Source: an uncultured Solirubrobacterales bacterium (GTDB lineage Bacteria > Actinomycetota > Thermoleophilia > Solirubrobacterales > Solirubrobacteraceae). From it: a DNA stretch of 64,000 nucleotides. The notes below the pieces were generated by a model. That model saw only the letters and a program-made list of their open reading frames with translations. It had not been told where the DNA came from and did not search any database. Below, in pieces: positions 1-22,318 of the stretch (position 1 is its first letter; the number at the start of each line of letters is the position of its first letter). The stretch covers positions 77,838-141,837 of the forward strand of contig CAVVTO010000009.1 in NCBI GenBank assembly GCA_963751185.1. Direction: 5' to 3'. The translations under genes were made by a program, and so were the position numbers.

Positions 1-1136
1 ATGAAGGCGTCCGGCGAGCCCTCATCCAACTGCCTGCGCAACAGATCGATGTTGCGCCGAGACTTTGCCTTGGAGCTGCGCACGGTCTCCAGGTAGCCGT
101 AGTGCTGAACGCGGACCGTTGTCTGGTGGATGCGGCCGGGAGCGTAGTGCGGCAGGCTGTGCGAAATCTGCTCATGGACGCGACCTTGGAACCGATACTG
201 GGGCCGGTTTCTGAACATGCGCAGCATGTTGTCGGTCGTGGCGAAACCATCGCCAACCCCGCCCACATAGCTGGTTTCGACCACGGAGAAGGCTTCCCTC
301 CAGGTGTGGCCCGTCAGCGCTCGGAGCCGCTCGGCATCCTCTGAGACCAAGACCTCGTCGGCATCGAGAAACATCACCCAATCGCCGGTGGCGGCGTCGA
401 AGGAGATGTTTCGGGCTTCCGCGAATGAGTCGGTCCATTCGTGCTCGATCACGCGAGCTCCGAACGATCGGGCGATCTGGATCGTCGTGTCACGCGACCC
501 CGTGTCGACGACGATGATCTCGTCGACGACCGGAGCGATCGCTCCCAGGCAACGAGGGAGCATCTCCTCCTCGTCTCGGACGATCATGCACAGGCTCAGC
601 GTCAGACCAGCGACCGGGCTCGCCTTCTGGGCGGCGACGGTGGCGCGACGCGAGAGGCTCGAACTCGTCGCTTGAATCGGCCGTGCGGTCGCTCTTTCCC
701 TAAGGCGGCTCTCCACCGCAGCGAGCTGCTCGTCCAGGCCGGCGAGACCCGGATCCAGACGTTGAGCTGCTTGGAACAGGGCGAGCGCGACATCGAAGTC
801 CCCGAGCTCGCGGAACGCGACGCCGGCGCAGCCCAGCACCACCGGCTCACTCGGTTGCGCTTCGAGGACCTCCACGGCAGCGTCGGCAACCGCCATCAGA
901 ACTCCAGCCGCCGGAGCGGAGGGGGTGCTCGCCGCGGCCGCAAGTCCGCGCTCGAGCAGAACCACCCGCGCGTGATAGACGCGATTCGGATCCTCCAGCC
1001 GGCTGGCATCCGCGAACAGCCGCCGGTAAGCGTCGACGTCGCCACCGGCCAGCAGCTCCTCGGCCCGAGCGCCTAGGTGTGCCGCAGAAAAAGGGCTCTC
1101 GTCGCCGGGCGCGAGCGAAGTTGCGGCGAAAACCAT
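1..1136 (-). CDS. TPR-repeat plus family-2 (GT-A) glycosyltransferase; the 3' end runs off the left edge
   Basis: Absent from the ORF track because no stop lies inside the window. My minus-strand translation from ATG 1136 stays open to position 1. It reads MVFAATSLAPGDES..., then TPR-like helices (AFRELGDFDVALALFQAAQRLDP), then a GT2 signature: LSLCMIVRDEEEMLPRCLGAIAPVVDEIIVVDTGSRDTT...GDWVMFLDADE (DxD). Confidence 0.8.
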   Translation of the reverse strand, partial: MVFAATSLAPGDESPFSAAHLGARAEELLAGGDVDAYRRLFADASRLEDPNRVYHARVVLLERGLAAAASTPSAPAAGVLMAVADAAVEVLEAQPSEPVVLGCAGVAFRELGDFDVALALFQAAQRLDPGLAGLDEQLAAVESRLRERATARPIQATSSSLSRRATVAAQKASPVAGLTLSLCMIVRDEEEMLPRCLGAIAPVVDEIIVVDTGSRDTTIQIARSFGARVIEHEWTDSFAEARNISFDAATGDWVMFLDADEVLVSEDAERLRALTGHTWREAFSVVETSYVGGVGDGFATTDNMLRMFRNRPQYRFQGRVHEQISHSLPHYAPGRIHQTTVRVQHYGYLETVRSSKAKSRRNIDLLRRQLDEGSPDAF

Positions 1137-1292
1137 CGTCTCCACTATGGTCGACACCTCCTCGGTGGCACTTGAGCCGCTTACGCTTCAGTTCCCCGCG
1201 GCACGACCGATTAAAGGGTTACCGGGCCCCTCGATGCCCAGGATCGTCTATGCCCGTCCCGATTTCACACCCGGTTCACGGAACGCCACGCG

Positions 1293-2750
1293 TTGCGCAA
1301 GCGTGAACGTGACCATCTGCTCGCTGTCGCCGACAGCATGCTCGACGGCGCGCGCCAGCTCCCCTACCTCGAGTCGGCGTCGGTGCGCAGGATGGCCCGC
1401 GACATCCTCGACGCGGTCCCCCTCCTCGACGCCCCGGCCTACGAGGGTACGCGTGAGGAGATCGCGCGGACCGCTGAAGGCTTGCTGGCCGCAGCCGGTG
1501 CCGACACGACCTCGGCAGAGCACGAACTGATTGGTCAACTCTGCGCGCTCAGGCAGCGACTTCTCGCCGACACAAACATCACGTACACGGTCGTGTTCAT
1601 GCCCTACAACGCGTCCATGTGGGACAGTTTCCACACCATCTGGGCCGCGGCTCAGGCTGATCCCCGGGTGGAGCCGATCGTGGTCCCGATCCCGTACGCG
1701 GACCGACTCCCGGACGGCGGCGCCGGTGCCTGGCACGTTCACACGACTGAGCTGCCCCCCGAGGTCCCAGTCACGCCGTATACGGAGTTCGATCTGCAAG
1801 CCACGCATCCTGACGTGATCTACGTCCACAATGCCTACGACGGCAACAACCGCGTCACGAGTGTCGCCCCGCAGTTCTATAGCGCCGAGCTGCGCCCGCA
1901 CACGGACCTGCTGGTGTACGTCCCGTACTACGTATCGGCGACGGCCCCCGGAGAGCACCTGTACGGCGCGCCAAGCTTCGAACTGTTCGACAAGGTGATC
2001 GTCCAGTCCGAAGAGATCGACCAGCCGGTCATCGAGAAGTGGACGAGCAACAAGGTGGTGCCGCTTGGTTCCCCGAAGTTCGACTACGTCCGTTCGCCGG
2101 GGTCACCTCCTCCGGCGGAGTGGACCGAAAGAACCAACGGCAAAACCGTGCTTCTACAGGTGACATCGATCGTCGAGCTGCTCGGCCCTCCGGCTGACCG
2201 TCAGGCGGTCATGCGGAAGCTGAACGAGGTCCTCGACGTGGTGGAGGCGAGTGAAGATCTCATGCTGTGGTGGCGCCCTCACCCGCTCGAGCGGGCGACC
2301 GTGACCAGCATGGTGCCTGACATCGAGCCCCTCCACGCGGCCTATGAGAAGCGGGCCAGGCGCTCCGGCCGTGTCCTAGTCGACACCTCGGCAGACCTGC
2401 AACGGGCGATCCACAACACGGACGCCTACTACGGCCAGTGGAGTTCAATCGTCACGCTCTACGGATTCACCGGCAAGCCGGTCGTCATTCAGGATGCCAA
2501 CGTGGAAACGAACGTCCCCCGGCCCGAGGGACCTCCGGACGGCGGCCCGATCGCTGCCCTGAGCGCGTGGGCTCGGCTTGAGTGGTTCGTCTATGAGGGT
2601 GCGATCGAGTACCTGCGCCGGATGCTGAGCCAACCCAACGGTCGTGTGCCAGGGCAGCATGAGTATTTCGCGTCACTCGCCGCGCACTCGGACGGGACTG
2701 CGGGCCAGCACATCCACGATTACGTGATCAGCTGCCTGACGGATGCGTGA
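1293..2750 (+). CDS. Putative TagF/TarL-like CDP-alditol (polyol-phosphate) transferase
   Basis: 485-aa ORF. N-terminal motif FMPYNASMWDSFHTIW. C-terminal half has LMLWWRPHPLE and VDTSADLQ...YYGQWSSIVTLYGFTGKPVVIQD, resembling the HP and SS...KP motifs of TagF-family enzymes. GTGA overlap with the next gene. Family assignment is from motif memory only. Confidence 0.5.
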   Translation: MRKRERDHLLAVADSMLDGARQLPYLESASVRRMARDILDAVPLLDAPAYEGTREEIARTAEGLLAAAGADTTSAEHELIGQLCALRQRLLADTNITYTVVFMPYNASMWDSFHTIWAAAQADPRVEPIVVPIPYADRLPDGGAGAWHVHTTELPPEVPVTPYTEFDLQATHPDVIYVHNAYDGNNRVTSVAPQFYSAELRPHTDLLVYVPYYVSATAPGEHLYGAPSFELFDKVIVQSEEIDQPVIEKWTSNKVVPLGSPKFDYVRSPGSPPPAEWTERTNGKTVLLQVTSIVELLGPPADRQAVMRKLNEVLDVVEASEDLMLWWRPHPLERATVTSMVPDIEPLHAAYEKRARRSGRVLVDTSADLQRAIHNTDAYYGQWSSIVTLYGFTGKPVVIQDANVETNVPRPEGPPDGGPIAALSAWARLEWFVYEGAIEYLRRMLSQPNGRVPGQHEYFASLAAHSDGTAGQHIHDYVISCLTDA

Positions 2751-3967
2751 CCGCCGCCATGACGTCCGACGTTGAGCGCGCGATCGACGAACTCCAGCGC
2801 TCCGGCCGGCTCCAGCACGTCGCGCTCTACGCCTTCGGCCACACCGCCGCGACCGAGCTGATGCGCCGACGCCTCGGCCTGTATGACATCACGCTGACCG
2901 GAGTCTTCGACAACAACCCGGCAAAGCAGGGCAGCTCCCTGCATGGGGTCCCCGTAATCGCACCGGACGCGATCGCCGACGCGAGCGTGCCGTCGGTCGT
3001 TCTGATCGCCTCGAGGTTCCACAGCGAGATGTGCCGGCAGCTGCTGAATCTCGGATACGCGGGGGAGATCATTCGCGTCGGCACCCTCTCCATCGAGGCT
3101 GACACGGCGTCCGGAACGGACCCTGATCGCGGCGCGCGGCTGCTCGGTCAGCTCCGCATCGCTCATCCGGACCGCCATCTCGTTGTGTGTCCGTTCGGCG
3201 CGCTGGGCGACGTGTACTGGGCGCTTGCCTACCTTCCAGCCGTTACTGCCGGCGGCCGCCCGCTACCGCCCGTGGTTGTGGTGGTGGTCGGTGAGGGGTG
3301 CCGGCAGGTCGCCCGGCTCTTCGGCCACGGGGACGTGCACAGCCTCTCGCAGGTCGAGATGGACGACCTTGTGGGGGCCGTCGTGGATGCGGGAGCGTCG
3401 GATGCGACGATCGCCCATCACGACCGGCCGTATGGCGACGGCGCCCCGGTCCGCGCCCTCGATCAACGCTTCGTGGCGTTTACTGACATGTACCGCGACC
3501 TGGTTTACAAGCTGCCGGCCCGCTCTCAACCGCGCGCCCCCACGCGGCACGTGCCCGCGTGGGCCAGGCCCGATGCCCCGTCGTGGGCAAGACAGATTCC
3601 CCAGGGCCGGGGTGTGCTGATGGCCCCCTACGCAAAGAGTGTCATGCCAGTTCCATTGTCGTTCTGGGAGGACACCGCCAAGCGCCATGCCTCGCAGGGG
3701 CACGTCGTCGCGACGGTCGTGCACGGTGAGGAGGAACCGGTACCCGGGACCCTGCCGCTCGAGATTCCGATATCGCAGATGCTCGATGCCGTTGAGCACG
3801 CGGGCACGTTCATCAGCCTGCGCAGCGGGCTCTGTGACGTCGTTCATACCGCGTGCGCCCGCAAGATCCACGCCTTCCCGGACGCGCATTACAGCACCAC
3901 TCCCTACAAGGTTGCTGACTTCTTCGCGCTCCCAGGTTGGGAATCGGTCGTTCTCCAGGTCTCATGA
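2747..3967 (+). CDS. GT9-like (heptosyltransferase-fold) glycosyltransferase with an extra N-terminal Rossmann-like domain; paralog A
   Basis: N-terminus HVALYAFGHTAATELMRRRLGLYDITLTGVFDNNPAKQGSSLHGVPVIAPDAI. Middle HLVVCPFGALGDVYWALAYLP, resembling the GT9 N-domain IGD motif. C-terminus AGTFISLRSGLCDVVH, resembling the GT9 xDSGxxH region. Clear paralog of 5778-7082. Confidence 0.5.
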   Translation: MTAAMTSDVERAIDELQRSGRLQHVALYAFGHTAATELMRRRLGLYDITLTGVFDNNPAKQGSSLHGVPVIAPDAIADASVPSVVLIASRFHSEMCRQLLNLGYAGEIIRVGTLSIEADTASGTDPDRGARLLGQLRIAHPDRHLVVCPFGALGDVYWALAYLPAVTAGGRPLPPVVVVVVGEGCRQVARLFGHGDVHSLSQVEMDDLVGAVVDAGASDATIAHHDRPYGDGAPVRALDQRFVAFTDMYRDLVYKLPARSQPRAPTRHVPAWARPDAPSWARQIPQGRGVLMAPYAKSVMPVPLSFWEDTAKRHASQGHVVATVVHGEEEPVPGTLPLEIPISQMLDAVEHAGTFISLRSGLCDVVHTACARKIHAFPDAHYSTTPYKVADFFALPGWESVVLQVS

Positions 3968-5014
3968 GCGCCAGAAGGCGATCATCCGCCGGTACATCTC
4001 CGCCATCCCGTAGCGCGGCTCCCAGCCGAGCGCACGGATCTTGTCTGTGGCCAGACGGTATGAAGAGGGCGGCGCATATCCCCGGCGTTCGATGTCCTCG
4101 GGCGGCTTGACGACGACATTGATCGTCCCGCCGGCGACCTCACGGGCGACCACCTCCGCCATTTGCCGAATGGTCATGCTTGCCTGCGAGTTGGCGACGT
4201 TGTACGCCTCTCCAGCTGCGCCTTTGGTGGCGACTAGCAACAGCGCGCGAACAGCATCCGTGAGGTAGCAGACGTTGGTCAGGGCGGCCCCGTCGGTGTG
4301 AAGCTCGATGTCACGCCCGGCCAGCACGGAACGCGCGAACTGCAATGGGACACGAGTGTTCTCGGGATCATTCGGAACCCCGGCACCGAAGGTGAGACCG
4401 AGGCGGGCATTGGTCGTGCGCAGGCCATACTTCGTGGCGTAGGCGGCGCTCAACGCCTCGGCCCGCCGCTTTCCCTCCGGATAGCTGCTGCGAGGCTCGT
4501 CCGGGTCGACTGTCCCCAGATCGCTCTCCGCAACCACGCCCGACAAGCCTTGGCCGTACACCTCCATCGAGGACACGTTGACGACGCCGCGGGCTCGGAG
4601 TGCCACAGCCAGGTCGAGGACGTTGCGGGTGCCGTCCACCGCTGTCGCGAGGACCTCTTGGGGATACGCGACCATGCGCGCCGATGACGTCACCCCCGCC
4701 GTATGAAAGACAAAGTCGGCCCGGTCCAACCGGCTCGTGGCCGGCGAGAGCTCGCGCACGTCCGCCGCTAGGAACCGCACGTCGAGCTCAGCTTCGAGCC
4801 CTCGCCCTTTGACCGCGTCGCGCCCCTGCGCGACCACGGTGAGATCCAGGTCCTTGGAAGCGTTGGCCCCGCTGAGCACCCGAGCGATCCCGCTCCCGAT
4901 TGTCCCCGTCGCGCCCGTCACCAGTACGGTGGCGCCCCGAAACCGGTCCCAGAGGATCGCGGGATCGTTCAGCGCTGTCTCGATATCGTCTCTGAGCACA
5001 TCAGACACGGCCAC
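3962..5014 (-). CDS. Extended-SDR NAD-dependent epimerase/dehydratase/reductase
   Basis: VLVTGATGTIGSGIA (TGxxGxxG), SSMEVYG, YPEGKRRAE (YxxxK). Lies 44 nt downstream of the cytidylyltransferase gene on the same strand. Confidence 0.8.
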   Translation of the reverse strand: MAVSDVLRDDIETALNDPAILWDRFRGATVLVTGATGTIGSGIARVLSGANASKDLDLTVVAQGRDAVKGRGLEAELDVRFLAADVRELSPATSRLDRADFVFHTAGVTSSARMVAYPQEVLATAVDGTRNVLDLAVALRARGVVNVSSMEVYGQGLSGVVAESDLGTVDPDEPRSSYPEGKRRAEALSAAYATKYGLRTTNARLGLTFGAGVPNDPENTRVPLQFARSVLAGRDIELHTDGAALTNVCYLTDAVRALLLVATKGAAGEAYNVANSQASMTIRQMAEVVAREVAGGTINVVVKPPEDIERRGYAPPSSYRLATDKIRALGWEPRYGMAEMYRRMIAFWRS

Positions 5015-5058
5015 GACGCACGCTCACCCGGCGGAGGATAGAGCGCGCCGGCCTCGGG

Positions 5059-5781
5059 TCACGCTGCCAGGATCTGCTGGTTCTCCATGACCTCGTACAG
5101 CGCGCGGAAAACATAGTAGTCCGTAGGCTTGGTGATCTTCATGTTGTTGGGCGTACTGGCGACCGTGCGCGGTCGGACCCCGCGCAAATGACAGAGATGG
5201 GCAGAGTCGATCGTCCCGATCTTCTCCGCCTGCGCCCATTCGTACAGCTCGTAGATCAGGCCGTACCGGAAGCTCTGCGGTGCTTTGGCGACCTGCATCT
5301 CATCGCGAGGCGGAACATCCACGATGTCACCGGCGGCGTCCACGCGCACGACACTTTCCACCACGCGCTCGACGGTGATGGCCGCCCCGTGCTCGCGGGC
5401 GGCGGCGATGTTCTCGGTTAGAAGCTGCTCGTCGATCAGGGGGCGCACGCCGTCGTGGATCAGGACGATGTCCTCGTCAGCCGTCGTGTCCCGCATGGCA
5501 ACCAGCCCGTTGTAGATCGACGCGTCACCGGTCAAGCCGCCGGGGACGATCGTCGTCACCTTTTCGATGTCATAGCGGCGCAGCAAACGCTTGAGCTCTG
5601 CGATCCACGACTCCAGGCACACGACCACGATCCTGTCAACCTCCGGATGCTTCTCGAAGTGCTCGATCGTGTAGATGATCACGGGTTTGCCGTGAAGCTC
5701 CAGAAACTGCTTCGGGGTCGATCGGGTGCTCATGCGCTGGCCGGTGCCTCCAGCGAAGATCAGACCCGTCACGGAATTCAT
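5059..5781 (-). CDS. IspD/TarI-family cytidylyltransferase (CDP-ribitol/CDP-alditol synthase-like)
   Basis: LIFAGGTGQRMSTRSTPKQFLELHGKPVIIYTIEHF...IVLIHDGVRP is typical of the IspD/TarI fold. ATGA overlap with the upstream gene. Confidence 0.75.
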   Translation of the reverse strand: MNSVTGLIFAGGTGQRMSTRSTPKQFLELHGKPVIIYTIEHFEKHPEVDRIVVVCLESWIAELKRLLRRYDIEKVTTIVPGGLTGDASIYNGLVAMRDTTADEDIVLIHDGVRPLIDEQLLTENIAAAREHGAAITVERVVESVVRVDAAGDIVDVPPRDEMQVAKAPQSFRYGLIYELYEWAQAEKIGTIDSAHLCHLRGVRPRTVASTPNNMKITKPTDYYVFRALYEVMENQQILAA

Positions 5782-7082
5782 GAGAACACTCCGACGACGT
5801 CATCGAGGACCAGGTCCATTTCGGAGGAGGAGAACTCGAGCTCCACCGCGTCATCACAAAGATCCATGGCGTTGAGGCTGAACATCTCGAACATTGAAGT
5901 CTTGAACCACGGTCCGCGCTCGTGGAGGATCACCTTCACGGCTCTGGCTGGACTGATCACATCGCACAGGCCGCTCCGCAAGCCCACGAAGAAGCCTGCG
6001 CTCTCGACGAACTGCACCGCTTGCGAAAACGGGAACTGGAGCAGCACGGTACCGGCCACCGCCGGTTCTTCGGGGCCGAAGCCGCTCGTGCACACGTCAT
6101 ATCCCCTGGCGGAGAGATCCGCCGCCAGTGAGTTCCAGAACTGCTCGTCATGCCCGTGCACCAGTGAACGCGCGTACGGAGCGAGAATGACCGTCCGTCC
6201 GGGCCTCAACCCGTTGCTGAGGAGCGCAGCCGGAGCCGCGGCCGGATCGGAATCGGACGACGGAACGTCGTGCGGCACGTCATCGTCGAGATCAAACGAT
6301 GCATACCGGAACATCTTCTCGAAGTTCAGCCCGTTGTAGCCCTGCATCTGGGCGACCGAACCGTTGAGAGACGGGTAGTGCATGACCACCAGGTCCTCGG
6401 CCCTGCGCCGAGCGACGCGAGCGTAGTCGACGATGTGCCACAGAACATCCTCGTCGAGTACGACAACCTCGTCAAATCCGAACAGCTCCACCATGCGCCG
6501 GCAGGCCCCGTTCGGGACGGCGATCACGAATCGTTGCACGTTGTTCTTCCGCACGTACTCACGGATGAACAGGCATTCGACGTAGACGTCGCCCGCCGGC
6601 GGCACCGGGGTCAGAAAGACGGTTCGCTTGCCATCGGCGCCATGGGCGAGCTTTCGTAGGGCTATCGCCCCTTTGGCAACCGGGGCCAGTCGGCGCAGGA
6701 ACACCCACCACGCCTTCTTGGGAGGGAGGGCACCGACCGAGAAAACCTGAGTACGCTTCGAATACCCCATCTGGACAACCTGATGGGTCATCTCTGACCA
6801 GTACGTCGGAGACGTGATCACGATTACGCGGTCCTTGTCGAAGGGGGCCAGCACCTCCTCGGGAGTCTGTACCGTCAAACCCAGGTATTCCCGACCGACC
6901 TTTTCCCTGCTGTTATCGATGATGGCGTCGACGGCAAAGCCGCGGTCCTCCAGCCAGCGCTTGCACCGCCCGTCGGTTACTGACGCACCGAACAGGACGA
7001 TCTTCTTGTCGTCGAAGACGCCCCTGCGCGCGAGCCGGCCGACTCGCTTCTCGATGTCGTCGAAGAATCTCTGCAGGCTCAT
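5778..7082 (-). CDS. GT9-like glycosyltransferase with N-terminal Rossmann-like domain; paralog B
   Basis: The track ORF is 5778-7277, but ATG 7082 (MSLQRFFDD...) forms an ATGA overlap with the stop of 7079-7558. KKIVLFGASVTDGRCKRWLEDRGFAVDAIIDNSREKVGREYLGLTVQTPEEV; VFLTPVPPAGDVYVECLFI; AGFFVGLRSGLCDVIS. Aligns by eye with 2747-3967 along its length. Confidence 0.55.
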   Translation of the reverse strand: MSLQRFFDDIEKRVGRLARRGVFDDKKIVLFGASVTDGRCKRWLEDRGFAVDAIIDNSREKVGREYLGLTVQTPEEVLAPFDKDRVIVITSPTYWSEMTHQVVQMGYSKRTQVFSVGALPPKKAWWVFLRRLAPVAKGAIALRKLAHGADGKRTVFLTPVPPAGDVYVECLFIREYVRKNNVQRFVIAVPNGACRRMVELFGFDEVVVLDEDVLWHIVDYARVARRRAEDLVVMHYPSLNGSVAQMQGYNGLNFEKMFRYASFDLDDDVPHDVPSSDSDPAAAPAALLSNGLRPGRTVILAPYARSLVHGHDEQFWNSLAADLSARGYDVCTSGFGPEEPAVAGTVLLQFPFSQAVQFVESAGFFVGLRSGLCDVISPARAVKVILHERGPWFKTSMFEMFSLNAMDLCDDAVELEFSSSEMDLVLDDVVGVFS

Positions 7083-7558
7083 GCTCTGACCATCCCGTGG
7101 CTCCGCAGCCTCAAGCAGCCGAGCGACACCAAATCGTCTTTGGTGACCCCTTGGCGACCCAACAGCCGGTGTAGACCGTTGCCGAACGGCTTGGTCAGCG
7201 ACACAATCAACAAGCGATCGGTGATGCTGCATAGCTCGTAGAACGCGATCAACGCATCGATCTGGCTTGCCGTCCATGACTCGGTGCCGACGATGCCTGG
7301 CGAGCGTTCGGGGTCCGCCCCCGAGTCTCCGAACTCAGACGCGCTCGGTGCTGGCAGCGAGCAGTCGCTCACCAGCACCACGCCTTGCGCACGCCTGTCC
7401 GCGACGAGGTCCTCGATGCGCCTGAGCGCCGCGGCATTCAGCTCGGCGTCGTCCTCCGGGAGGAGGAGCACGTACACACCCTGACCCACGTTGTACTTGC
7501 GCTCGAGTCGGGCCCATAGCCGGCTTCCGCGATAGGCGGCGTAGGTCTGCCTCAACAT
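7079..7558 (-). CDS. Hypothetical protein (159 aa) embedded in the glycan operon
   Basis: The ORF is translationally coupled on both sides (a 1-nt TGATG overlap upstream, ATGA downstream). No family recognised. Confidence 0.5.
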   Translation of the reverse strand: MLRQTYAAYRGSRLWARLERKYNVGQGVYVLLLPEDDAELNAAALRRIEDLVADRRAQGVVLVSDCSLPAPSASEFGDSGADPERSPGIVGTESWTASQIDALIAFYELCSITDRLLIVSLTKPFGNGLHRLLGRQGVTKDDLVSLGCLRLRSHGMVRA

Positions 7559-7932
7559 CAGAGGCTCTCGTCGACGGTGACGGTCATATCCGGCCCCTCA
7601 TCTCGGCTTACGCTCACAGAGACCGCGGTTCTCAACCCGGACGGCTTGGCGTCGTTCACGACGATCCGCTCTCCGAACGGGGCTCCGAAAATGATGTGGT
7701 CGTACCGGATACCGCTCTCGACCAGGAACACTTCGGTTGCCGCGCGATGGCTCTCCCCGCGGCTGGTCACGATCACGACCAGGTCGCCTGCCGGGATCTG
7801 CGCAAGGAGAGCACCGGCTCCCGGCAGGAGACTATCCCGCCCATCGGTCAGGTGCCCGTTGTGCTTGACCAGCGTGCCGTCCAGATCGAGGAACCAGGTG
7901 TGCCCGAGCGGGGAGAGAACGAGTTCCTTCAC
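7558..7932 (-). CDS. Small HAD-superfamily phosphatase
   Basis: FLDLDGTLVKHNG (DxDxT motif I) and VVIVTSR (motif II). GTGA overlap with the upstream SIS gene. Confidence 0.65.
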   Translation of the reverse strand: MKELVLSPLGHTWFLDLDGTLVKHNGHLTDGRDSLLPGAGALLAQIPAGDLVVIVTSRGESHRAATEVFLVESGIRYDHIIFGAPFGERIVVNDAKPSGLRTAVSVSVSRDEGPDMTVTVDESL

Positions 7933-8597
7933 CGCCGAGAGTCCTCTGGCAGCGCAGACCGCAGCTCATCCGCCCAGACCCCCAGCTCCGCCGCATCCAG
8001 CTCTTCATCCAGCTCCGCTGCATCGAGCTTGGCACCGATCGCGCCACCTGGATGATTGGCGTGCAGCACGTCAATCGGGACTCCGAAGTGCTCGATGAGC
8101 GCCATGGCCAATCCCTGCAGGACGATGAGGTTCAGCACCGTGGAGTTGTTGGGCAAGATGTTCCAGCCGTCACCTTCGTGCTCCAGGTCGAGCACGAGGC
8201 GCTTGGGGATCTCCCGCTGGAGGATGCTTTCGCGGCTAAACGTGAGAAGCCATTGCGTGCAGCGGCGCTTGCTCAGCAGGCGCGAGAGGTGCACCGACTC
8301 CGCGGTCTCACCGCTCTTGGTCATGATGACAACGAGATCCCCGTCACGCACCACTCCGAGATCACCGTGGACTGCCGAGTTCGTGTGCATGAACGCTGCC
8401 GCCAGGCCCACCGAGTTGAGCGTGCCGACGATCTTCTCGCAGATCGGCACGTTCTTGCCGAGGCCGGAGAAGACGAGCTTGTTACCGCCGGCGAGGGTGG
8501 CGATCGCGTCTTCCTCAAGGCTCGCGAACTCGTGTGGATCAATGGAGCGCACCGCGCCCGTGAGGATGCGGAGCGTCTCGTCGAAGTCGTGGCTCAC
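7929..8597 (-). CDS. SIS-domain sugar-phosphate isomerase (KpsF/GutQ-like, single domain, no CBS pair)
   Basis: KLVFSGLGKNVPICEKIVGTLNSVGLAAAFMHTNSAVHGDLGVVRDGDLVVIMTKSGETAE matches the KpsF/GutQ SIS core pattern. Start chosen at GTG 8597, which has a GAGGAGG Shine-Dalgarno 5 nt upstream and a GTGA overlap with the upstream stop. The track start at 8642 is the alternative. Confidence 0.7.
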   Translation of the reverse strand: MSHDFDETLRILTGAVRSIDPHEFASLEEDAIATLAGGNKLVFSGLGKNVPICEKIVGTLNSVGLAAAFMHTNSAVHGDLGVVRDGDLVVIMTKSGETAESVHLSRLLSKRRCTQWLLTFSRESILQREIPKRLVLDLEHEGDGWNILPNNSTVLNLIVLQGLAMALIEHFGVPIDVLHANHPGGAIGAKLDAAELDEELDAAELGVWADELRSALPEDSRR

Positions 8598-10189
8598 AGT
8601 GCCTCCTCGAGGTAATAGATGCCGTTGTAGAACGCCCCGCAAATGGAGTCGTAGTCATGCCACGCGTAGGTGGTGAGCGACAGCCAGATCACAGCGTGCA
8701 GGAGCTTGATCGTGCGGGGCTCTCCCCCGCTTAGCGCGAATAGGTCCTCCTCGAGGCTTTCCCATCCGTTGGAATCGACCGTCAGGTCAACGGTTGCAGG
8801 GGTGAGGCTCAAGCGGAAGTTCTTGAGGTTGAACTGGTCGTAGTTTCCGACGACCGAGTAGTAGAGCTTCGCCCAGTCATAGTTCGGGTCTCCGTGCAGC
8901 TCCGTGTACCCGAAGTAGCCGCGCGGGTCGATGAGCACCGGTTCCGTGCCGCCGCGCAGCATCAGGTTCGAGAACGTGGGATCCCCGTGGATGAAGGCGA
9001 ACCGCTCGACGCTCAGTGCGTCCAGGGCGCGCTCCAGATCACGTCTGTAGAAGTAGATGTTGCGGCACTCCCTTCCGTTCACCGTGATCGTCTTGTGCTC
9101 CGTGAACGGGATCAACTCTCGTACCGCCTTGAGACGTTCAACGGTCTTCCCGTAGTACGCCTCCCTGGTGCTGAACGAGTCGGCGGGAGTCGACTCCAGC
9201 GAGTGAAGCTCGCGCAGCGTCGCGGTCAGGTCAGCCAGGATCTCGCGCTTGCCGACCAAGGGCAGGTCGGCATACTCGTAGATGTTCTTGCCGTCGATCC
9301 TCTCGATCGTCAGGGGCTCGAACTCGTACAGCTGCGGGATTCTGTTGACGCCGAGCTTGACCGCGTGCCTGTACCAGCCCACTTCACGACGCGCGAGTGA
9401 CCGTCCCTGCTCGTCGACCGGCTCCTTGATGAACCTCTCGCCAACGACGGTGGCGCGGTTGAAGGGGCGCGTCTTCTCGGCAGCGAGCGCTTGGTACTCC
9501 GACAGCAAACCGAACTCACGGGTCCCAGCGAGCCCCAGCTCGTCGAAGTCATGTCCCTTCTGCTGGAGCCACCGGACCAGTTCGCCGCTCGCCGGGACGT
9601 CCGACAGGGCCGACTTGTCCCGGAACACAAACAGTCCCGCCACTCCATGCTCCCGTGAGCGCTCTTCGACAAACCGGCCGTCCGTGTGGCTCCACCGACA
9701 GTCAAACGTCTGAGAGATCCCCACCCAATCGCGGTCCCCTGCCGGTAGCTCGAAGCCCGCCGGCAAGATCAGATCCGACCACACAAGCATGAACGGCTCG
9801 CCGTCCGGCAGCAGGGCGAGCGCCTGGTCGACACCGCCGCACGTTCCCGACCCGGCAGCGTCGACGACTTGATATTCGACGTCGGCGAACGCAGCGAGGT
9901 ACTCGCGCAACACTTCCCGGTGATAGTCCGCAATGACGACGAACCGCTTGTCCGGGAACCTGCGGAAGAGGTGGAAGATCATTGGCAGGTTCTCGACCGG
10001 CACGAGCGCTTTGGGCTTGTTCGCGGTCAGATGCTCCAGCCGCGTCCCCTTGCCTCCGGCCTGTACGACGATGTAGTCCACGGTCCTGGGATCAGCTCGG
10101 CCGTTCGCGTGTTGCCCGTTACCCGACACGTGAACCGACGCTGCCGACGGCTGCGCGATGCGGGAGAGCGTCGTGTCGAGGGACATCAC
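8594..10189 (-). CDS. Bifunctional sugar-phosphate nucleotidyltransferase (N-terminal) / APH-choline-kinase-fold kinase (C-terminal)
   Basis: N-terminus VVQAGGKGTRLEHLTANKPKALVPV (GxGTRL plus KPK, NTP-transferase). C-terminus FIHGDPTFSNLML...LIDPRGYFG (HGDxxxxN catalytic loop and the IDxx metal site of the APH/ChoK/AmgK fold). Confidence 0.7.
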   Translation of the reverse strand: MMSLDTTLSRIAQPSAASVHVSGNGQHANGRADPRTVDYIVVQAGGKGTRLEHLTANKPKALVPVENLPMIFHLFRRFPDKRFVVIADYHREVLREYLAAFADVEYQVVDAAGSGTCGGVDQALALLPDGEPFMLVWSDLILPAGFELPAGDRDWVGISQTFDCRWSHTDGRFVEERSREHGVAGLFVFRDKSALSDVPASGELVRWLQQKGHDFDELGLAGTREFGLLSEYQALAAEKTRPFNRATVVGERFIKEPVDEQGRSLARREVGWYRHAVKLGVNRIPQLYEFEPLTIERIDGKNIYEYADLPLVGKREILADLTATLRELHSLESTPADSFSTREAYYGKTVERLKAVRELIPFTEHKTITVNGRECRNIYFYRRDLERALDALSVERFAFIHGDPTFSNLMLRGGTEPVLIDPRGYFGYTELHGDPNYDWAKLYYSVVGNYDQFNLKNFRLSLTPATVDLTVDSNGWESLEEDLFALSGGEPRTIKLLHAVIWLSLTTYAWHDYDSICGAFYNGIYYLEEAL

Positions 10190-10253
10190 GCGAGATGATC
10201 GGCACCGGTGCGCGAGAGTTGAGCAGCCGCTCGAGGGCTCCCCGGCAGTACTT

Positions 10254-10267
10254 CCTCGCGCGCGAGG
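10254..10267. promoter_or_regulatory. Perfect 14-bp palindrome CCTCGCGCGCGAGG in a divergent promoter region
   Basis: Read directly. It lies in the 250-bp gap between the minus-strand glycan operon (start 10189) and the plus-strand methyltransferase (start 10440). Function unknown. Confidence 0.2.
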
Positions 10268-10439
10268 ATGCGGCTATGCGGCGACGAGCGCCCACGACCG
10301 GCCGAATCCGAGGTCAAGAATGGTGCGCGGCTGCCGATGAAGTGGAGTGAACCTCGATGAGCCTCGGTGCGATCACATCCGCGTCCGGCGGTGTCACTCT
10401 GCCCTTGAGCAGATCGGCTAGATAGAACAGCGCTGCTTC

Positions 10440-11441
10440 ATGCCTCTCTTCTCTAGCAAGATCAACCATCTGCTTGCCCTCACAGAGGCCGACAGAGACG
10501 CCAAGGAGGCGCTGGCTCGGGGAGAAACTCCGTGTCTTGTGGTCGACGCCGACTTCTTCGCGAAGCTGGGAGTCGGCGTGACGATCACCAGCGCTCAGAC
10601 GATCGTTGTAGGGGAGGCAATCGGCGTTCTCCAGGCAATGGTTGCCGAAGGCAAACAGCCGTTCGTCCTGTATGCGGTCGAACATGCGCAGGACGGGCTT
10701 GCGCTCATCGAGTGGCTCACCGACCAGGGGTTCAAGTATCGAGGCGCGGGCGGCTACGACGTCGGCGGCTACGTACATGACGACCGGATCGCGCGGGAGA
10801 CGATCGAAACCGCGCTCCTCGAACAGACCTTCGACGGGTACGAGAAGTTCTGGGACCCCGGGTCGCATCAGGACTTCGTCAACCTGACCCAGGCCCTTTA
10901 TCGAACTCGTCGGTTGTCCGGAAATGTCGTCGAGGTCGGGTGCTTCCGAGGGAGTAGCGGGTCGGTGATGCTCGACTACGCGGCGAATAAGAGCCTGCCT
11001 CCCAGGCGCTTCTGGTTCTTTGACGTATTTCAAGGGTTCGACTACGACGAAGCGCTTGCTAGTTCGGATGCGACCTGGGCGAACAGCCACGCCACCGAGG
11101 GTGACGCGATCGTCCGTCAGCGTCTTGAGCGGAAGGCCGGCGCAAACCAGGTCACGGTCAAGAAGCTGAACATCATCACCGACGAGATCCCTGATGACCT
11201 AGGGCCGATCGTCGTCGCGAACATAGACGTCGATCTCTACGAGGCGGTGCTCGCCGGGTTGGCCAGGATCGCTCCGTTGATGCAGATCGGAGGCATCATG
11301 ATCTGCGAGGACGCGGGGCATACGCCGGCGCTCGTCGGGGCCGCCCTGGCCTTGGAGCAGTTCCTGGACTCGGATCTCGGCGCCGGGTTCACGCCAGTCC
11401 ACATGACCTCGGGACAGACGTTCCTGGTCAGGCACTCATAA
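10440..11441 (+). CDS. TylF/MycF-family SAM-dependent O-methyltransferase
   Basis: VVEVGCFRGSSGSVM...VANIDVDLYEAVLAGL...GGIMICEDAGH matches the macrocin-O-methyltransferase family pattern. An in-frame TAG 21 nt upstream fixes the earliest possible start. Confidence 0.7.
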   Translation: MPLFSSKINHLLALTEADRDAKEALARGETPCLVVDADFFAKLGVGVTITSAQTIVVGEAIGVLQAMVAEGKQPFVLYAVEHAQDGLALIEWLTDQGFKYRGAGGYDVGGYVHDDRIARETIETALLEQTFDGYEKFWDPGSHQDFVNLTQALYRTRRLSGNVVEVGCFRGSSGSVMLDYAANKSLPPRRFWFFDVFQGFDYDEALASSDATWANSHATEGDAIVRQRLERKAGANQVTVKKLNIITDEIPDDLGPIVVANIDVDLYEAVLAGLARIAPLMQIGGIMICEDAGHTPALVGAALALEQFLDSDLGAGFTPVHMTSGQTFLVRHS

Positions 11442-11497
11442 CCGCGCCCCAGCGCGGCGGTCGGCCAACGTCGCAGTCCACGCCATAATGCCTCGCC

Positions 11498-12496
11498 ATG
11501 CCGTGCCCGAGCACCAGCGCATGGAGCGGCCGCTCGGTGTTCGTCACCGGCGCGTACGGCCTGCTCGGAAGCTGGCTGGCCAAGCGATTGCTTGAGCTCG
11601 GGGCCAGCCTCACGGTGCTGAAGCGGGACACGGTTACCGGCTCGGCGTTGGTACTCGAAGGCACCGAACGGCGCGTCAACGTCGTGAGCGGCGACGTGTG
11701 CGACGGCCCGTTACTCGAACGGGCAATTGCCGAGTACGAGATCGACACGGTCTTTCACCTGGCTGCGCAGGCGATCGTAGGAATTGCCAACACCGCACCC
11801 GTGTCCACGTTCGAGACGAACATCCGCGGGACCTGGATGCTGCTCGAGGCCTGCCGGCATGTCGAGGTGGAGCGCGTCGTGGTTGCCGCCTCCGACAAGG
11901 CCTACGGAATCCACGAGCAGCTTCCCTACCGCGAAGACTTCGCGCTCGAGCCCCGCTACCCCTATGACGTCTCCAAAGCGGCAACCGACATGCTCGCTCG
12001 CTCCTACTGGCACGCGTTCGGCCTCCCCGTCGCGGTGACCCGTTTCGCAAACCTGTACGGGGGCGGCGACTTCAATCGCTCCCGCCTCGTGCCTGAGGCG
12101 GCGCTGGCTGCAATCGACGGGCGCCGGCCGGTGATTCGGTCGGACGGCACGCTCGAGCGGGACTACCTGTATGTCGAGGACGCGGTCGAGGCCTACATCG
12201 CGATCTGTGACCTGGTCGGGAGCGGCGCCGGCGTCGGAGAAGCGTTCAACGCCGGCTCCGACCAGCCCCGCTCGGTGCTCGAAGTCGTGGAACTGACCTG
12301 CTTGGTGGCCGGAACCGGCGTGCAGCCGGACGTGCGCGGCACCGGCGCCCCAGCGGGTGAGATTCCCCGTCAGTGGGTCGACTCGACCAAGCTTCGGACG
12401 ATGACTGGTTGGGAGCCCCGGGTGACGCTCGAGGAAGGCCTGCGCCGGACGGTCGAGTGGTATCGGCGTTACCTGTACGACGGTACTAACGGCTGA
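11498..12496 (+). CDS. NDP-sugar 4,6-dehydratase/epimerase, RfbG (CDP-glucose 4,6-dehydratase)-like extended SDR
   Basis: WSGRSVFVTGAYGLLGSWLAKRLLELGA, ASDKAYG, YDVSKAATDMLARSY (YxxxK). Confidence 0.75.
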   Translation: MPCPSTSAWSGRSVFVTGAYGLLGSWLAKRLLELGASLTVLKRDTVTGSALVLEGTERRVNVVSGDVCDGPLLERAIAEYEIDTVFHLAAQAIVGIANTAPVSTFETNIRGTWMLLEACRHVEVERVVVAASDKAYGIHEQLPYREDFALEPRYPYDVSKAATDMLARSYWHAFGLPVAVTRFANLYGGGDFNRSRLVPEAALAAIDGRRPVIRSDGTLERDYLYVEDAVEAYIAICDLVGSGAGVGEAFNAGSDQPRSVLEVVELTCLVAGTGVQPDVRGTGAPAGEIPRQWVDSTKLRTMTGWEPRVTLEEGLRRTVEWYRRYLYDGTNG

Positions 12497-12565: not shown

Positions 12566-13303
12566 ATGAGCTACACCGATGCCGTAAGCCGGGTCTCCCA
12601 GATCCAGGCCCAGATCGCCTCCCTACAGACCGCCTTCGATCCGTCCGTCGCCGCGAGCACGACCGGCTCGTCGACCGGTGGGGTTTCCACGACCGGCACC
12701 GCGACTGGCAGTACGTCCGGCGCGAGCAGCTTCGCCGACGCGCTGGCGCAGGCCCAGGGAACCTCGGGAACGCTCGGCACGGCATCAGACGTCCCGAACA
12801 TCGTCAGTTCGGGCCTCACGAGCGCAGGCCTCACCAGCACCGGCCTCGTCGGCAGTACCGGAGGCGCGGCGCTGCCCGCCGGCGCGCAAACCATGCTGAC
12901 CTCCGATCAGCAGCAGTTCGCCTCCCGGCTGGCGGCCGACACCGGCCTTGATCCGAGCGTGGTCTCCGCCTGGCTGCTCGCCGAGGAGTCCGGTGGCGCC
13001 GCCCAGTCACGTCAGTCCCAGAACAACAACGACTGGCTCAACATCGGCTACACCGACAGCGCCACCTACGGCTCGAGCGACTCGATCTGGTCAAACCCGG
13101 TCACCGCCGCCGATGCCACCGCCGGCTGGCTCAAGGGCCAGAACACGATCCCGGGCTACGGCACCGCGAGCTCGGGCATCCAGGGGATTCTGAGTACCGC
13201 CGGTTCCTCCCCGGCGACGCAGATCGCCGCCCTCCAGAACTCGGGCTGGGCCTCGAGCGGCTATCCGGACCTGCCCTCGCTCTACTCGCAAGTGGCCGAC
13301 TAG
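12566..13303 (+). CDS. Ser/Thr/Gly-rich protein with a possible GH73/FlgJ-type glucosaminidase-like C-terminal domain
   Basis: Good Shine-Dalgarno (AAGAGG). Low-complexity middle. C-terminus LAADTGLDPSVVSAWLLAEESGGAAQ...NNNDWLNIGY...SGWASSGYPD loosely recalls the glucosaminidase motif ESGWG...NNxFGI...YAtDpxY. Confidence 0.4.
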   Translation: MSYTDAVSRVSQIQAQIASLQTAFDPSVAASTTGSSTGGVSTTGTATGSTSGASSFADALAQAQGTSGTLGTASDVPNIVSSGLTSAGLTSTGLVGSTGGAALPAGAQTMLTSDQQQFASRLAADTGLDPSVVSAWLLAEESGGAAQSRQSQNNNDWLNIGYTDSATYGSSDSIWSNPVTAADATAGWLKGQNTIPGYGTASSGIQGILSTAGSSPATQIAALQNSGWASSGYPDLPSLYSQVAD

Positions 13304-20439: not shown

Positions 20440-21762
20440 TCATCCGGCCGCCAACGCCCTTGGCAGCAGGGCATCCATCGCCAGGTCATAGTCCAGCGAC
20501 TCCCCGGCCGACAGCGGCCGGCACGTGAACGCATCCACGACTACGCCGCGCGCCCGGTGCTGCTCGGCAAGCGAGCCTCCCACCACCGAGCCGCACTCAG
20601 GCGCCGGCGCAATCGCCCTCCCATCCGGCCGGCGGAACCTCACTGCCCCGCCGCGCGATCGCTCCACCCTGAACCCGCCTTCGTGCACCAACCGATGGTG
20701 ATAGGAGCACAACTGCACCAGGTTCTCCAGCGCGGTCGGCCCGCCCCGGGCCCAATGCTGGATGTGGTGGGCATGCAGGAAGTTTTGATGTGTGCAGCCG
20801 GGAAAGCGGCAGCCGTCGTCCCGGCTTCGCAGCGCCCGCCGCAGCGCCGGCGGAATCGTCCGCGTCCGCCTGCCCACGCTCAGCGGCCGCCCGTCCCGCT
20901 CCACGATCCGCACCACCGCCGCATCGCAGCCCAGTCGGCGCGCCGTCTCCGCGGGAAGTGTCGGTCCGTCCGCCAGCTCCGCCCGCTCGACCACGTCCTC
21001 CGACGCGAGCGTCGCCGCATCGACATGGACCACGATCTCGGGCACAGCCGGACTGGCGCCCCCAGCCGGGGAGGCCGCGCCAGCCCCCGCGGCGACGGCG
21101 GCGAGAGCGCCCTTGGCCAGCGCGACCAGCGCGTCGGCGCGGCGGGCGGCAACCGGCGACGCCACGTAGTCGTCCTCCTCGTGCGACTCCTGGAGCGCGT
21201 CCACCGCGTTGATCATGATCGCGGCGTCATCGGGCGGCAGCTGTCCTTCCAACCGCAGCGACCCGTCCTCGTTCCAGCTCCACCTCAGATACCGACACTC
21301 CTGGGCACGCTGAGCCGCTCCCAGCGTCGCCGACAGCGCCTTCGAATAGCAGCGCACGAGCTTCTCGAGCTGCGCGCCGGTGGCGTGTCGCGCGATCTCG
21401 AGCAGTCCGGCCTCAGTCGCCGGCGTCGCCGCGCGCGTCAGGGCGCGCACCTTGCAATACGACAGCTGCCCGCGGGAGAACGCCTCGCGGATAGCAGGCA
21501 GCTCCTGGAGCCGATGCGCGACCCGCACCTGCTCCCGCGCCGCCCCAAGCCCGAGCGAGCACTTCCAGGAAAGCCAGTGTGCGCACGACTTCACGCCCCA
21601 ATCCGCCCATCCACCTCGCGCATCGAACTCCGCGATCAGCGACAGCCAGCGGCAGGTCGCGACCGCGATGTGCGCGGCCAGTTCACAGATCTCCTGCTCG
21701 AGCTCGTCGAGTGATGGGGTCGCCGAAGATTCGGGCAGATCAAGGGCTACAACCGAACACAT
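20440..21762 (-). CDS. DUF222 / HNH endonuclease (REP13E12-like family)
   Basis: C-terminus [47 protein letters not shown] (HNH). The N-terminal helical region ([40 protein letters not shown]) is typical of DUF222. Start set at ATG 21762; the track ORF extends to 21996. Confidence 0.8.
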
Positions 21763-21792
21763 GTTCGATAGACTACGCGTACCCGCGGACGG

Positions 21793-21850
21793 AACCGAGC
21801 GTCCGCCGCACCGAGAAACCGAGCGTCCGCCGCGCACCGAGCGAACGCGC
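21793..21850. repeat. About 24-bp direct repeats (AACCGAGCGTCCGCCGC twice, plus a degenerate third copy) upstream of the HNH gene
   Basis: Read directly: AACCGAGCGTCCGCCGC at 21793-21809 and 21817-21833, then ACCGAGCGAACGCG. Confidence 0.7.
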
Positions 21851-21961
21851 GCGGGATCGCAAGGTCGCAGACCGACACGTGCAACCCCAAAGTTGCGTTT
21901 CTGCGGAAACGTCGAGGGCGAGTACCACGGGTCGTTGTCTCGGCCGCCGTCCCGGGGCTGG

Positions 21962-22318
21962 TCAGATGAAGTAGTGGCCCTGTTCGACGTCCGCAATGAG
22001 GCCCGGGTGGGCGGGCTTCCAGCCCAGGAGCTCCTGGGTGATGGTGCTGGAGGCGGGCATGTCAGTGATGAGCAGGGGCACGAGCATGCCGCCGAACTCT
22101 TCGGCCGGCAGGGACCGGGCGGGCAGGTTCAGGTGCCGGCCGATGGCCTCGGCGATCTCCCGAACGGGCACGCCTTCGTCACCGACGGCGTTGAGCACCG
22201 CGCCGTCGGGCGCCCGTTCGATGGCTAGCCGGTACAGGCTCGCTGCGTCCTTCACGTGGACGGCGGGCCAGCGGCTGGTCCCATCGCCGATGTAGCCCGA
22301 GACGCCCTTGGCCCGGGC
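21962..22318 (-). pseudogene. 5'-truncated remnant of an NmrA/atypical-SDR oxidoreductase (only the C-terminal ~120 codons remain)
   Basis: ARAKGVSGYIGDGTSRWPAVHVKDAASLYRLAIERAPDGAVLNAVGDEGVPVREIAEAIG...LGWKPAHPGLIADVEQGHYF is the C-terminal third of this family. No Rossmann GxxGxxG region precedes it, and the frame runs antisense into the TetR ORF. Confidence 0.6.

Follow-up and report, generated by a model that had tools for sequence, protein, structure and literature searches.

Which sugar is activated, and for which acceptor, by a compact run of overlapping genes in a bacterial glycan locus is the question addressed here. The genes lie in a stretch of 64,000 nucleotides (the window) from an uncultured Solirubrobacterales bacterium, a soil actinobacterium (GenBank assembly GCA_963751185.1, contig CAVVTO010000009.1, positions 77,838 to 141,837 of the forward strand). 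An earlier note, made from the letters of the window, had read the run at 5778-10189 as an isomerase, phosphatase and fused nucleotidyltransferase-kinase of a nucleoside diphosphate (NDP)-heptose or NDP-pentose pathway next to GT9-like transferases. We find that three of the genes, designated G, F and E, probably form a three-enzyme cassette that converts D-ribulose-5-phosphate (Ru5P) to nucleotide-activated D-arabinofuranose (D-Araf), by analogy with a route described in phages.

Seven genes, in the order G-F-E-D-C-B-A, occupy positions 3962-10189 of the minus strand, and the five in 5778-10189 overlap one another. Letters (and K485) serve as gene labels throughout, and coordinates are whole-window positions. 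Start and stop codons overlap at each boundary from G to B (G/F, GTGA; F/E, GTGA; E/D, TGATG; D/C, ATGA; C/B, ATGA), which confirms the translational coupling that had been proposed. The open reading frames (ORFs) lie where they had been placed, with two starts corrected. The F frame, drawn as 7929-8642, likely begins at a GTG at 8597 that follows a GAGGAGG motif and overlaps the G stop as GTGA. The C frame, drawn as a 499-amino acid (aa) ORF at 5778-7277 that overlaps D, is now started at the ATG at 7082, which overlaps the D stop as ATGA.

Phages RB69 and DLP3 attach D-Araf chains to 5-hydroxycytosine (5hoC) (Lee et al., NAR 2026, PMC13326640). There, three enzymes lead from Ru5P to NDP-Araf, namely an arabinose-5-phosphate (A5P) isomerase, a bifunctional protein and a small HAD phosphatase (PMC13326640). 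Within the bifunctional protein, a C-terminal kinase converts Araf-5-phosphate to Araf-1,5-bisphosphate and an N-terminal domain forms uridine diphosphate (UDP)-Araf, and the Mg-dependent phosphatase AfhF removes the 5-phosphate from Araf-1,5-bisphosphate; these activities are assigned to AfhE and AfhF of Escherichia coli phage HY126 (PMC13326640, citing He et al. 2026, Nat Chem Biol, doi 10.1038/s41589-026-02150-z). The homologue sets given are gp55, gp53-52 and gp51 of RB69 and gp83, gp82 and gp81 of Acinetobacter phage DLP3 (PMC13326640).

Carried over to the present operon, F would isomerise Ru5P to A5P, whose 5-phosphate would lock the furanose form. The C-terminal APH-fold kinase of G would then phosphorylate C1 to give Araf-1,5-bisphosphate, E would take off the 5-phosphate to leave Araf-1-phosphate, and the N-terminal nucleotidyltransferase of G would join the latter to a nucleoside triphosphate (UTP by analogy) to yield NDP-D-Araf. 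C and J, possibly with D as a half-domain partner, would transfer the arabinofuranose, and B and A would supply cytidine diphosphate (CDP)-ribitol for the same cell-envelope glycopolymer. In this scheme the genes, their coupling, domains, homology and synteny are observed, the activities and their order are borrowed from the phage literature, and the use of the same substrates here would follow by analogy. The sequence put forward in the earlier note, from ketose phosphate through aldose phosphate, aldose-1,x-bisphosphate and aldose-1-phosphate to NDP-sugar, is the order reported for AfhE and AfhF in PMC13326640.

Enzymes of the cassette

Both halves of G exceed the Pfam gathering scores (NTP_transferase, residues 41-141, E = 9e-8; APH, residues 265-445, E = 1.4e-10), and residues 1-35 form a low-confidence extension specific to Solirubrobacterales. 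G matches the phage family phrog_4098 (E = 4.2e-53, profile positions 4-502 of 559), as do RB69 gp52 and the WSPA and Kosakonia 305 proteins (E = 1e-169 to 1e-277). When 50,697 phage records were searched with G by tblastn, 363 gave a match and 345 of these spanned at least 80% of G, with E values from about 1e-22 down to 2e-27. Identity to the phage family was 25-29% at 92-95% coverage, and the matches included genes labelled as RB69ORF052c homologues; the copy in cyanophage S-SRM01 reached 35% identity (tblastn, E = 4e-89). A joint alignment of 12 bacterial and 4 phage fusion proteins contains 54 invariant columns common to both, many of them outside generic catalytic motifs; the shared motifs include CR, RxFN, IHGDxxFSN, IDPRGxFG, YDxAK, YDxFN and IWxxLxxY.

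An AlphaFold2 (AF2) model of G had a predicted local distance difference test (pLDDT) score of 80.6. Foldseek neighbours of its N-terminal domain were MurU (4y7u), HddC (5xhw), inositol-1-phosphate cytidylyltransferase and UGPase, and those of its C-terminal domain were APH(2'') (3ham) and, at rank 10, LicA (4r7b). These agree with the neighbours reported for the phage proteins, namely MurU (4y7t/4y7u) and APH(2'') (3ham), in Table 1 of PMC13326640. By sequence, G is a full-length homologue of the phage AfhE/RB69 gp53-52 family with the same domain order, and it is predicted by analogy to act as a D-arabinose-5-phosphate 1-kinase and NDP-D-Araf pyrophosphorylase.

F consists of a SIS domain (Pfam, E = 1.7e-11) and has no CBS domains. 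Its NCBIfam matches were to the SIS part of the KpsF/GutQ, KdsD and GutQ models (E = 1e-23 to 1e-26); kpsF, KdsD, GutQ and HexR were the only models matched, with none for GmhA. The best PDB match was 5uqi (E = 2.8e-20), which we take to be c3406, the single-domain A5P isomerase of E. coli CFT073, followed by 3fxa, 3etn and 2xhz (the SIS domain of E. coli KdsD). Alignments retain GxGK, HGDLG, SGET, an acidic residue opposite the glutamate of the KdsD "KEAC" motif and a C-terminal HPGG, which presumably correspond to KdsD K59, H88, E111, E152 and H193. F also matches phrog_5670, annotated as 'arabinose 5-phosphate isomerase' (E = 2.4e-23), the family of RB69 gp55, to which F is 27% identical (E = 8e-16). 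Conversion of Ru5P to A5P is the predicted activity.

E had no match in Pfam or NCBIfam. In an alignment of 19 homologues, the invariant residues are D16, D18, G19, T20, T56, R58, N93, D94 and K96, arranged as DxDGT, T56/R58 and N93-D94-x-K96. Searched against the PDB, the profile of this family matched 4xrp, which is the Pnkp1 phosphatase domain (E = 3e-7), as well as T4 Pnkp and, weakly, 1xpj (E = 0.9). E is 50% identical to the HAD protein encoded beside the fusion gene in S-SRM01, and its match to phrog_1238, the RB69 gp51 family, was weak (E = 0.0027; the S-SRM01 protein matches the same family at E = 5e-7). Profile comparison with T4-like gp51 proteins by hhalign was likewise weak (E = 0.007), though collinear through the motifs. 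BLASTP of E against RB69 gp51 found no similarity, and tblastn of E against phages found the S-SRM01 copy alone, plus marginal matches to polynucleotide kinases. An AfhF-like role as an Araf-1,5-bisphosphate 5-phosphatase is predicted for E by analogy. All four enzyme classes that had been listed at the outset (isomerase, kinase, phosphatase and nucleotidyltransferase) are recovered by Pfam, NCBIfam or profiles; the kinase is of the APH/choline-kinase type and C-terminal to the nucleotidyltransferase (Pfam, AF2/Foldseek), and the isomerase resembles A5P isomerases rather than GmhA (NCBIfam, PDB matches, motifs), in both cases as the earlier note had it.

The three genes stand side by side in phage loci too (RB69 gp55/gp53-52/gp51, WSPA, AB-Navy1, Kosakonia 305 and S-SRM01). 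In S-SRM01 (L082, 189672-203174), the SIS, fusion and HAD proteins are 35-50% identical to those of the window, and the trio sits in a block with genes for GDP-mannose dehydratase, GDP-fucose synthase, fucosyltransferases, GT2 proteins and an FkbM methyltransferase. This block looks like a glycan island, unlike the DNA-hypermodification context of T4-like phages.

Conservation, transferases and neighbouring genes

Homologues of the fusion protein number over 3,000, with "phosphotransferase" as their best annotation, and G is 62-73% identical to proteins of Firmicutes, Synergistales and Nocardioides. Conservation was counted over 80 genome loci of such homologues, drawn from Solirubrobacterales, Lachnospiraceae, Negativicutes, Treponema, Fibrobacteria and Synergistaceae; for 40 of them the sequence runs to 15 kb or more. 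By tblastn, the SIS gene was present in 74 of the 80 loci and the HAD gene in 63, and among the longer loci in 38/40 and 36/40, respectively, which bears out the co-occurrence that the earlier note had made a test of its proposal. Where a SIS gene was detected, it started within 300 nucleotides of the fusion-gene end and on the same strand in 72 of 74 cases; because the two genes adjoin so regularly, the arrangement is not due to chance.

In four loci (L043:7974-10118, L058:7998-10097, L065:7998-10115 and L079:7908-10094), ORFs of 699-728 aa look like nucleotidyltransferase-kinase-SIS fusions; the carriers of such fusions are Selenomonadales, Butyrivibrio sp. Su6, Schwartzia succinivorans and a Hungatella metagenome-assembled genome (MAG). 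The Su6 fusion was described independently by Thomas et al. (2018, PMC6024577), who listed about 80 prokaryotic proteins as diverged homologues of RB69 ORF53_52c and assigned them no role. Four other loci (L066, L073, L074 and L078, from Veillonellaceae, Selenomonas and Synergistaceae) have 2.7 kb or more of sequence following the fusion gene in which SIS was not detected, and in L073 a divergent C/J-like gene separates the fusion gene from HAD. These appear to be lineages that make 3-deoxy-D-manno-octulosonic acid (Kdo) and could draw A5P from a housekeeping KdsD. A GT2 family adjoins the cassette in other genomes.

The transferases of the operon were assigned by structure. No significant Pfam or NCBIfam match was obtained for D, C, J or K485; C in particular had no Pfam match at E up to 10, PF22674 being listed for most of its homologues in precomputed annotation and not reported here for C. 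The AF2 model of C (pLDDT 86) has a GT-B fold, and its top PDB matches by Foldseek were all GT9 enzymes, namely a Veillonella protein (3tov, E = 4.5e-7), WaaC (2gt1), WaaF (1psw) and TibC (4rap). Across the GT9 structures, E ranged from 4.5e-7 to 1e-4 with probability 1.0, target-normalised template modelling (TM) scores of 0.4-0.5 and 12-14% identity, and in a viral structure library the top matches were RfaF, GT9 and TibC-like proteins. Residues 1-120 form a Rossmann domain resembling Rex and CoA-binding proteins. The GT9 sequence model Glyco_transf_9 (PF01075) matched neither C, J nor three homologues at E up to 10. The GT9-like transferases of the earlier note are accordingly retained at the level of predicted fold and given up at that of sequence family.

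J is 26% identical to C and belongs to the same family by alignment, tblastn and clustering. The family occurs in 49/80 loci and in 29 of the 40 longer ones, and is in our view the best candidate transferase for the NDP-sugar that the cassette would make. The D family aligns by hhalign with the C/J family (probability 97.5%, E = 8e-12), D being placed on residues 130-268 of C. It was found in 18/80 loci by tblastn and in 21 loci by ORF clustering, usually directly upstream of a C/J gene, and D may be a partner or regulatory subunit of the C/J transferase.

B matches IspD in Pfam (E = 7e-42) and narrowly passes the NCBIfam D-ribitol-5-phosphate cytidylyltransferase subfamily model (167.3 bits against a cutoff of 166); it is predicted from these matches to synthesise CDP-ribitol or a related CDP-pentitol. 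A matches Epimerase (Pfam, E = 3e-37) and could be a pentulose-5-phosphate reductase that partners B, so that together they would plausibly make a CDP-pentitol, likewise from a pentulose-5-phosphate. By tblastn, A was found in 15/80 loci, B in 16/80 and K485 in 16/80. A and B occur together in the close relatives and also in L013 and L079, and K485 accompanies B in most loci that have either gene. K485 was considered as a TagF-like polyol-phosphate transferase, an assignment that found no support from Pfam, a single-sequence PDB search or a PDB search with a 9-sequence profile; its motifs GSPKFD, WRPHP and YYGxWSS presumably recall TagF, which no search confirmed. Features of the locus are collected in Table 1.

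Table 1. Features of the window and D-family copies in other loci (L numbers denote loci of other genomes).
Feature	Coordinates	Strand	Length (aa)	Assignment
G	8594..10189	-	531	Predicted nucleotidyltransferase (N-terminal, ~residues 38-230) and APH-fold kinase (C-terminal, ~245-531); AfhE-like
F	7929..8597	-	222	Single-domain SIS protein of KpsF/GutQ (putative A5P isomerase) type, without CBS domains
E	7558..7932	-	124	Putative minimal capless HAD-superfamily (DxDxT) phosphatase
D	7079..7558	-	159	Stand-alone paralogue of the N-terminal (acceptor-side) half of the C/J transferase
C	5778..7082	-	434	Predicted GT-B protein of GT9-like fold with N-terminal Rossmann domain
B	5059..5781	-	240	IspD/TarI-type cytidylyltransferase
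A	3962..5014	-	350	Extended SDR (epimerase/dehydratase family); final gene of the operon
J	2747..3967	+	406	Paralogue of C; second predicted GT9-like transferase
K485	1293-2750	+	485	Conserved family
Intergenic region between G and the divergent TylF-like gene	10190..10439			Presumed promoter region of the operon
TylF-like methyltransferase	10440-11441			Across the divergent region from G
SDR (4,6-dehydratase-like)	11498-12496			Across the divergent region from G
D-family copy	L022:10062-10544
D-family copy	L025:10129-10593
D-family copy	L045:10574-11038

The TylF-like methyltransferase and the second SDR were ruled out as members of the module, as they are not conserved with the cassette. TylF was found in 3/80 loci and the SDR matches were mostly generic (24-32% identity, tblastn); since neither is a conserved partner, the tailoring of a 6-deoxy or O-methyl heptose that had been suggested for them is without support. 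Directly downstream of the SDR gene, positions 12566-13303 (plus strand) encode a protein of 245 aa that has no Pfam match and whose long N-terminal region is rich in Ser, Thr and Gly. From about 13.4 kb onward the genes are unrelated and include a c-di-GMP-type signalling protein, Suf genes and a LysR regulator. A protein with DUF222 and an HNH endonuclease domain is encoded at 20440-21996 (minus strand); this family is often tied to mobile or repeated elements in actinobacteria.

The best genomic match, an uncultured Solirubrobacterales MAG (L001), has all genes of the cluster at 96-99% protein identity. The G+C content of the window is 63-75%, with values of 0.63-0.66 in the glycan cluster (1-12000) and mostly 0.69-0.75 elsewhere. 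The lower G+C of the cluster and the 65-70% identity of the fusion protein to Firmicutes proteins are both consistent with horizontal acquisition of the cluster.

Substrate, nucleotide and acceptor

Several points weigh against reading G, F and E as a D-Araf cassette that feeds C and J. G shares no more than 25-29% identity with the characterised phage family, so that its substrate or nucleotide specificity could differ. The phage activities are themselves second-hand, coming from PMC13326640, which cites He et al. 2026, and Table 1 of PMC13326640 gives another order for DLP3 and RB69, in which dephosphorylation precedes phosphorylation of free arabinose; the order of steps is open to doubt on this account. 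By sequence, E is tied only weakly to the AfhF family. The structures closest to the associated transferases belong to enzymes that use adenosine diphosphate (ADP)-heptose, and our literature search found no report of D-arabinose in glycans of organisms that carry the cassette.

In one alternative the same enzymes make another product, for example a CDP-, guanosine diphosphate (GDP)- or thymidine diphosphate (dTDP)-pentose, or E acts first and releases free D-arabinose, which would next be phosphorylated at C1, perhaps in its pyranose form. Nucleotide specificity is not readable from sequence, the nearest nucleotidyltransferase structures spanning C-, G-, U- and dT-specific enzymes, and the order in Table 1 of PMC13326640 would suit the free-arabinose variant. 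The text of the same paper cites biochemical work for the bisphosphate order and UDP, and the many shared invariant Arg and Lys residues of the kinase domain would fit a phosphorylated substrate; on balance we hold a different product to be unlikely.

A heptose pathway is formally identical in its chemistry. F would act on sedoheptulose-7-phosphate, G would phosphorylate C1 and activate heptose-1-phosphate, E would remove the 7-phosphate and the GT9-like proteins would transfer the heptose. The transferase folds closest to C, those of WaaC, WaaF and TibC, are indeed ADP-heptose enzymes, and the nucleotidyltransferase domain of G has HddC as one of its neighbours. Set against this, F matches KpsF/KdsD/GutQ and no GmhA model, with A5P isomerases as its best structures. 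G scores 27.7 bits with the HddC equivalog model (NF049965), for which the cutoff is 300, and its kinase is a Pfam APH protein rather than a GHMP (HddA) or ribokinase-type (HldE) enzyme. E, which is without any Pfam or NCBIfam match, matches no GmhB model. The characterised member of the AfhE family, to which G belongs, uses A5P according to PMC13326640. Of the two sugars that had been left open, heptose is disfavoured because no match to GmhA, HddA/HldE or GmhB was obtained and D-arabinose-5-phosphate is the substrate to which homology points; a heptose product now seems decidedly improbable, and the pentose is kept.

The acceptor could also be DNA, if a phage-derived module for arabinosyl-5-hydroxycytosine had entered the chromosome, and the only characterised homologues do serve DNA arabinosylation in T4-like phages (PMC13326640; PMC6024577). 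Among the genes scanned (window positions 1-28 kb), neither a thymidylate-synthase-like 5hoC synthase nor a phage gene was seen. The neighbours are instead CDP-ribitol-type genes and GT-B transferases, with a GT2 family in other genomes, and C and J are GT9-like in predicted fold, whereas the phage DNA arabinosyltransferases are PimA-like GT4 enzymes (PMC13326640, Table 1). We regard a DNA-modification role as very improbable. Least credible of all is salvage of choline, an amino alcohol or an N-acetyl-amino sugar by a LicCA-like or AmgK/MurU-type enzyme with SIS and HAD as unrelated neighbours: LicCA fusions share the domain order of G, and LicC (1jyk), LicA (4r7b) and MurU (4y7u) are among its sequence or structure neighbours, but the resemblance is at superfamily level only (about 54 N-terminal residues for LicC, E = 6e-5 with the profile; fold level for LicA; 30 bits against a cutoff of 250 for the MurU equivalog NF045761, MurU being a fold neighbour only), and the SIS and HAD genes, conserved just after the fusion gene and in some cases joined to it, speak against the LicA/LicC-type identity that the earlier note had kept in view.

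With no thymidylate-synthase homologue or phage gene nearby, the product of the D-Araf cassette most likely serves a cellular glycan, a glycopolymer of the cell envelope in which ribitol phosphate may occur as well; we hold this role with less confidence than the chemistry of the cassette itself.

The chemistry can no longer be called unknown, given its characterisation in phages in 2025-2026 and the notice taken of bacterial fusion homologues in 2018 (PMC6024577). The operon is therefore a new cellular counterpart of a known pathway, a new member rather than new chemistry. What appears, in the literature searched, to be unreported is the systematic embedding of the cassette in bacterial glycan loci across phyla, its association with a GT9-like transferase family and a half-domain paralogue, and the D-Araf glycans that it would imply, made from a nucleotide sugar outside the decaprenyl-phospho-arabinose (DPA) route. 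The nucleotide-sugar route to D-Araf was found recently and only in DNA-arabinosylating phages, and here the same cassette stands in ordinary bacterial glycan loci; a bacterial UDP-D-arabinofuranose or other nucleotide-sugar route was not found in our literature search.

In bacterial envelopes, D-Araf comes from the lipid donor DPA, best known in Corynebacteriales. We put forward, as a proposal whose chances we judge to be somewhat short of even, that at least five phyla (Actinomycetota, Bacillota including Negativicutes, Spirochaetota, Fibrobacterota and Synergistota) make soluble NDP-D-Araf, which a new family of GT9-like arabinofuranosyltransferases with a half-domain partner would place on envelope glycans. 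If true, D-Araf glycoconjugates would be reached by a second route besides DPA, one independent of lipid, and the bacterial cassette would be the likely evolutionary source of the phage genes for DNA arabinosylation. The proposal predicts unreported D-Araf surface glycans in many cultured and uncultured bacteria, nominates the transferase family and suggests an origin for the phage genes. Many fusion homologues occur in gut and rumen Firmicutes, and as several carriers of the cassette are in culture, the prediction is directly testable. The cultured carriers include Butyrivibrio sp. Su6, Schwartzia succinivorans DSM 10502, Sporofaciens musculi, Anaerosporobacter faecicola, Cohnella lubricantis, Brevibacillus fulvus and Nocardioides sp. 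BP30.

Comparison with known systems

The closest parallel is the phage UDP-D-Araf pathway, which shares with the operon the same three products, the nucleotidyltransferase-kinase order and full-length homology of the fusion protein, an A5P isomerase-type SIS protein, a small HAD protein (weakly matched) and the adjacency of the genes. It differs in gene order, SIS-fusion-HAD in phages and fusion-SIS-HAD here. Beyond the low identity already given (25-29%, or 35% to the cyanophage copy), the joint alignment shows a C-terminal tail of ~40 aa in the T4-like phage proteins that is absent from the bacterial fusion proteins. No ThyA-like 5hoC synthase was found among the scanned genes here, and the transferases are not of GT4 type. 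The company of the cassette here, GT-B proteins of GT9-like fold and genes of CDP-ribitol type, implies that the acceptor is a glycan and not DNA.

The heptose pathway (GmhA, HddA/HldE, GmhB, HddC/HldE) is alike in logic, with an isomerase, an anomeric kinase that forms a bisphosphate, a HAD enzyme that removes the distal phosphate and a nucleotidyltransferase, and in passing its product to a GT-B enzyme of GT9-like fold. Here, the isomerase is of KpsF/A5P isomerase type and not GmhA, the kinase has an APH rather than a GHMP or ribokinase fold, the HAD protein is a minimal Pnkp-like one and not GmhB, the substrate would be a pentose, and no equivalog model was matched.

DPA is the lipid-linked D-Araf donor of Corynebacteriales, made from phosphoribosyl pyrophosphate (PRPP) and used by membrane GT-C enzymes. 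The present operon would deliver the same sugar to actinobacterial envelope glycans, with the difference that a soluble nucleotide sugar derived from Ru5P and cytoplasmic GT-B enzymes are proposed. Finally, the GT9 heptosyltransferases WaaC, WaaF and TibC are the closest solved folds to C, which differs from them in its extra N-terminal Rossmann domain, in the separately encoded half-domain paralogue D and in a donor that is presumably not ADP-heptose.

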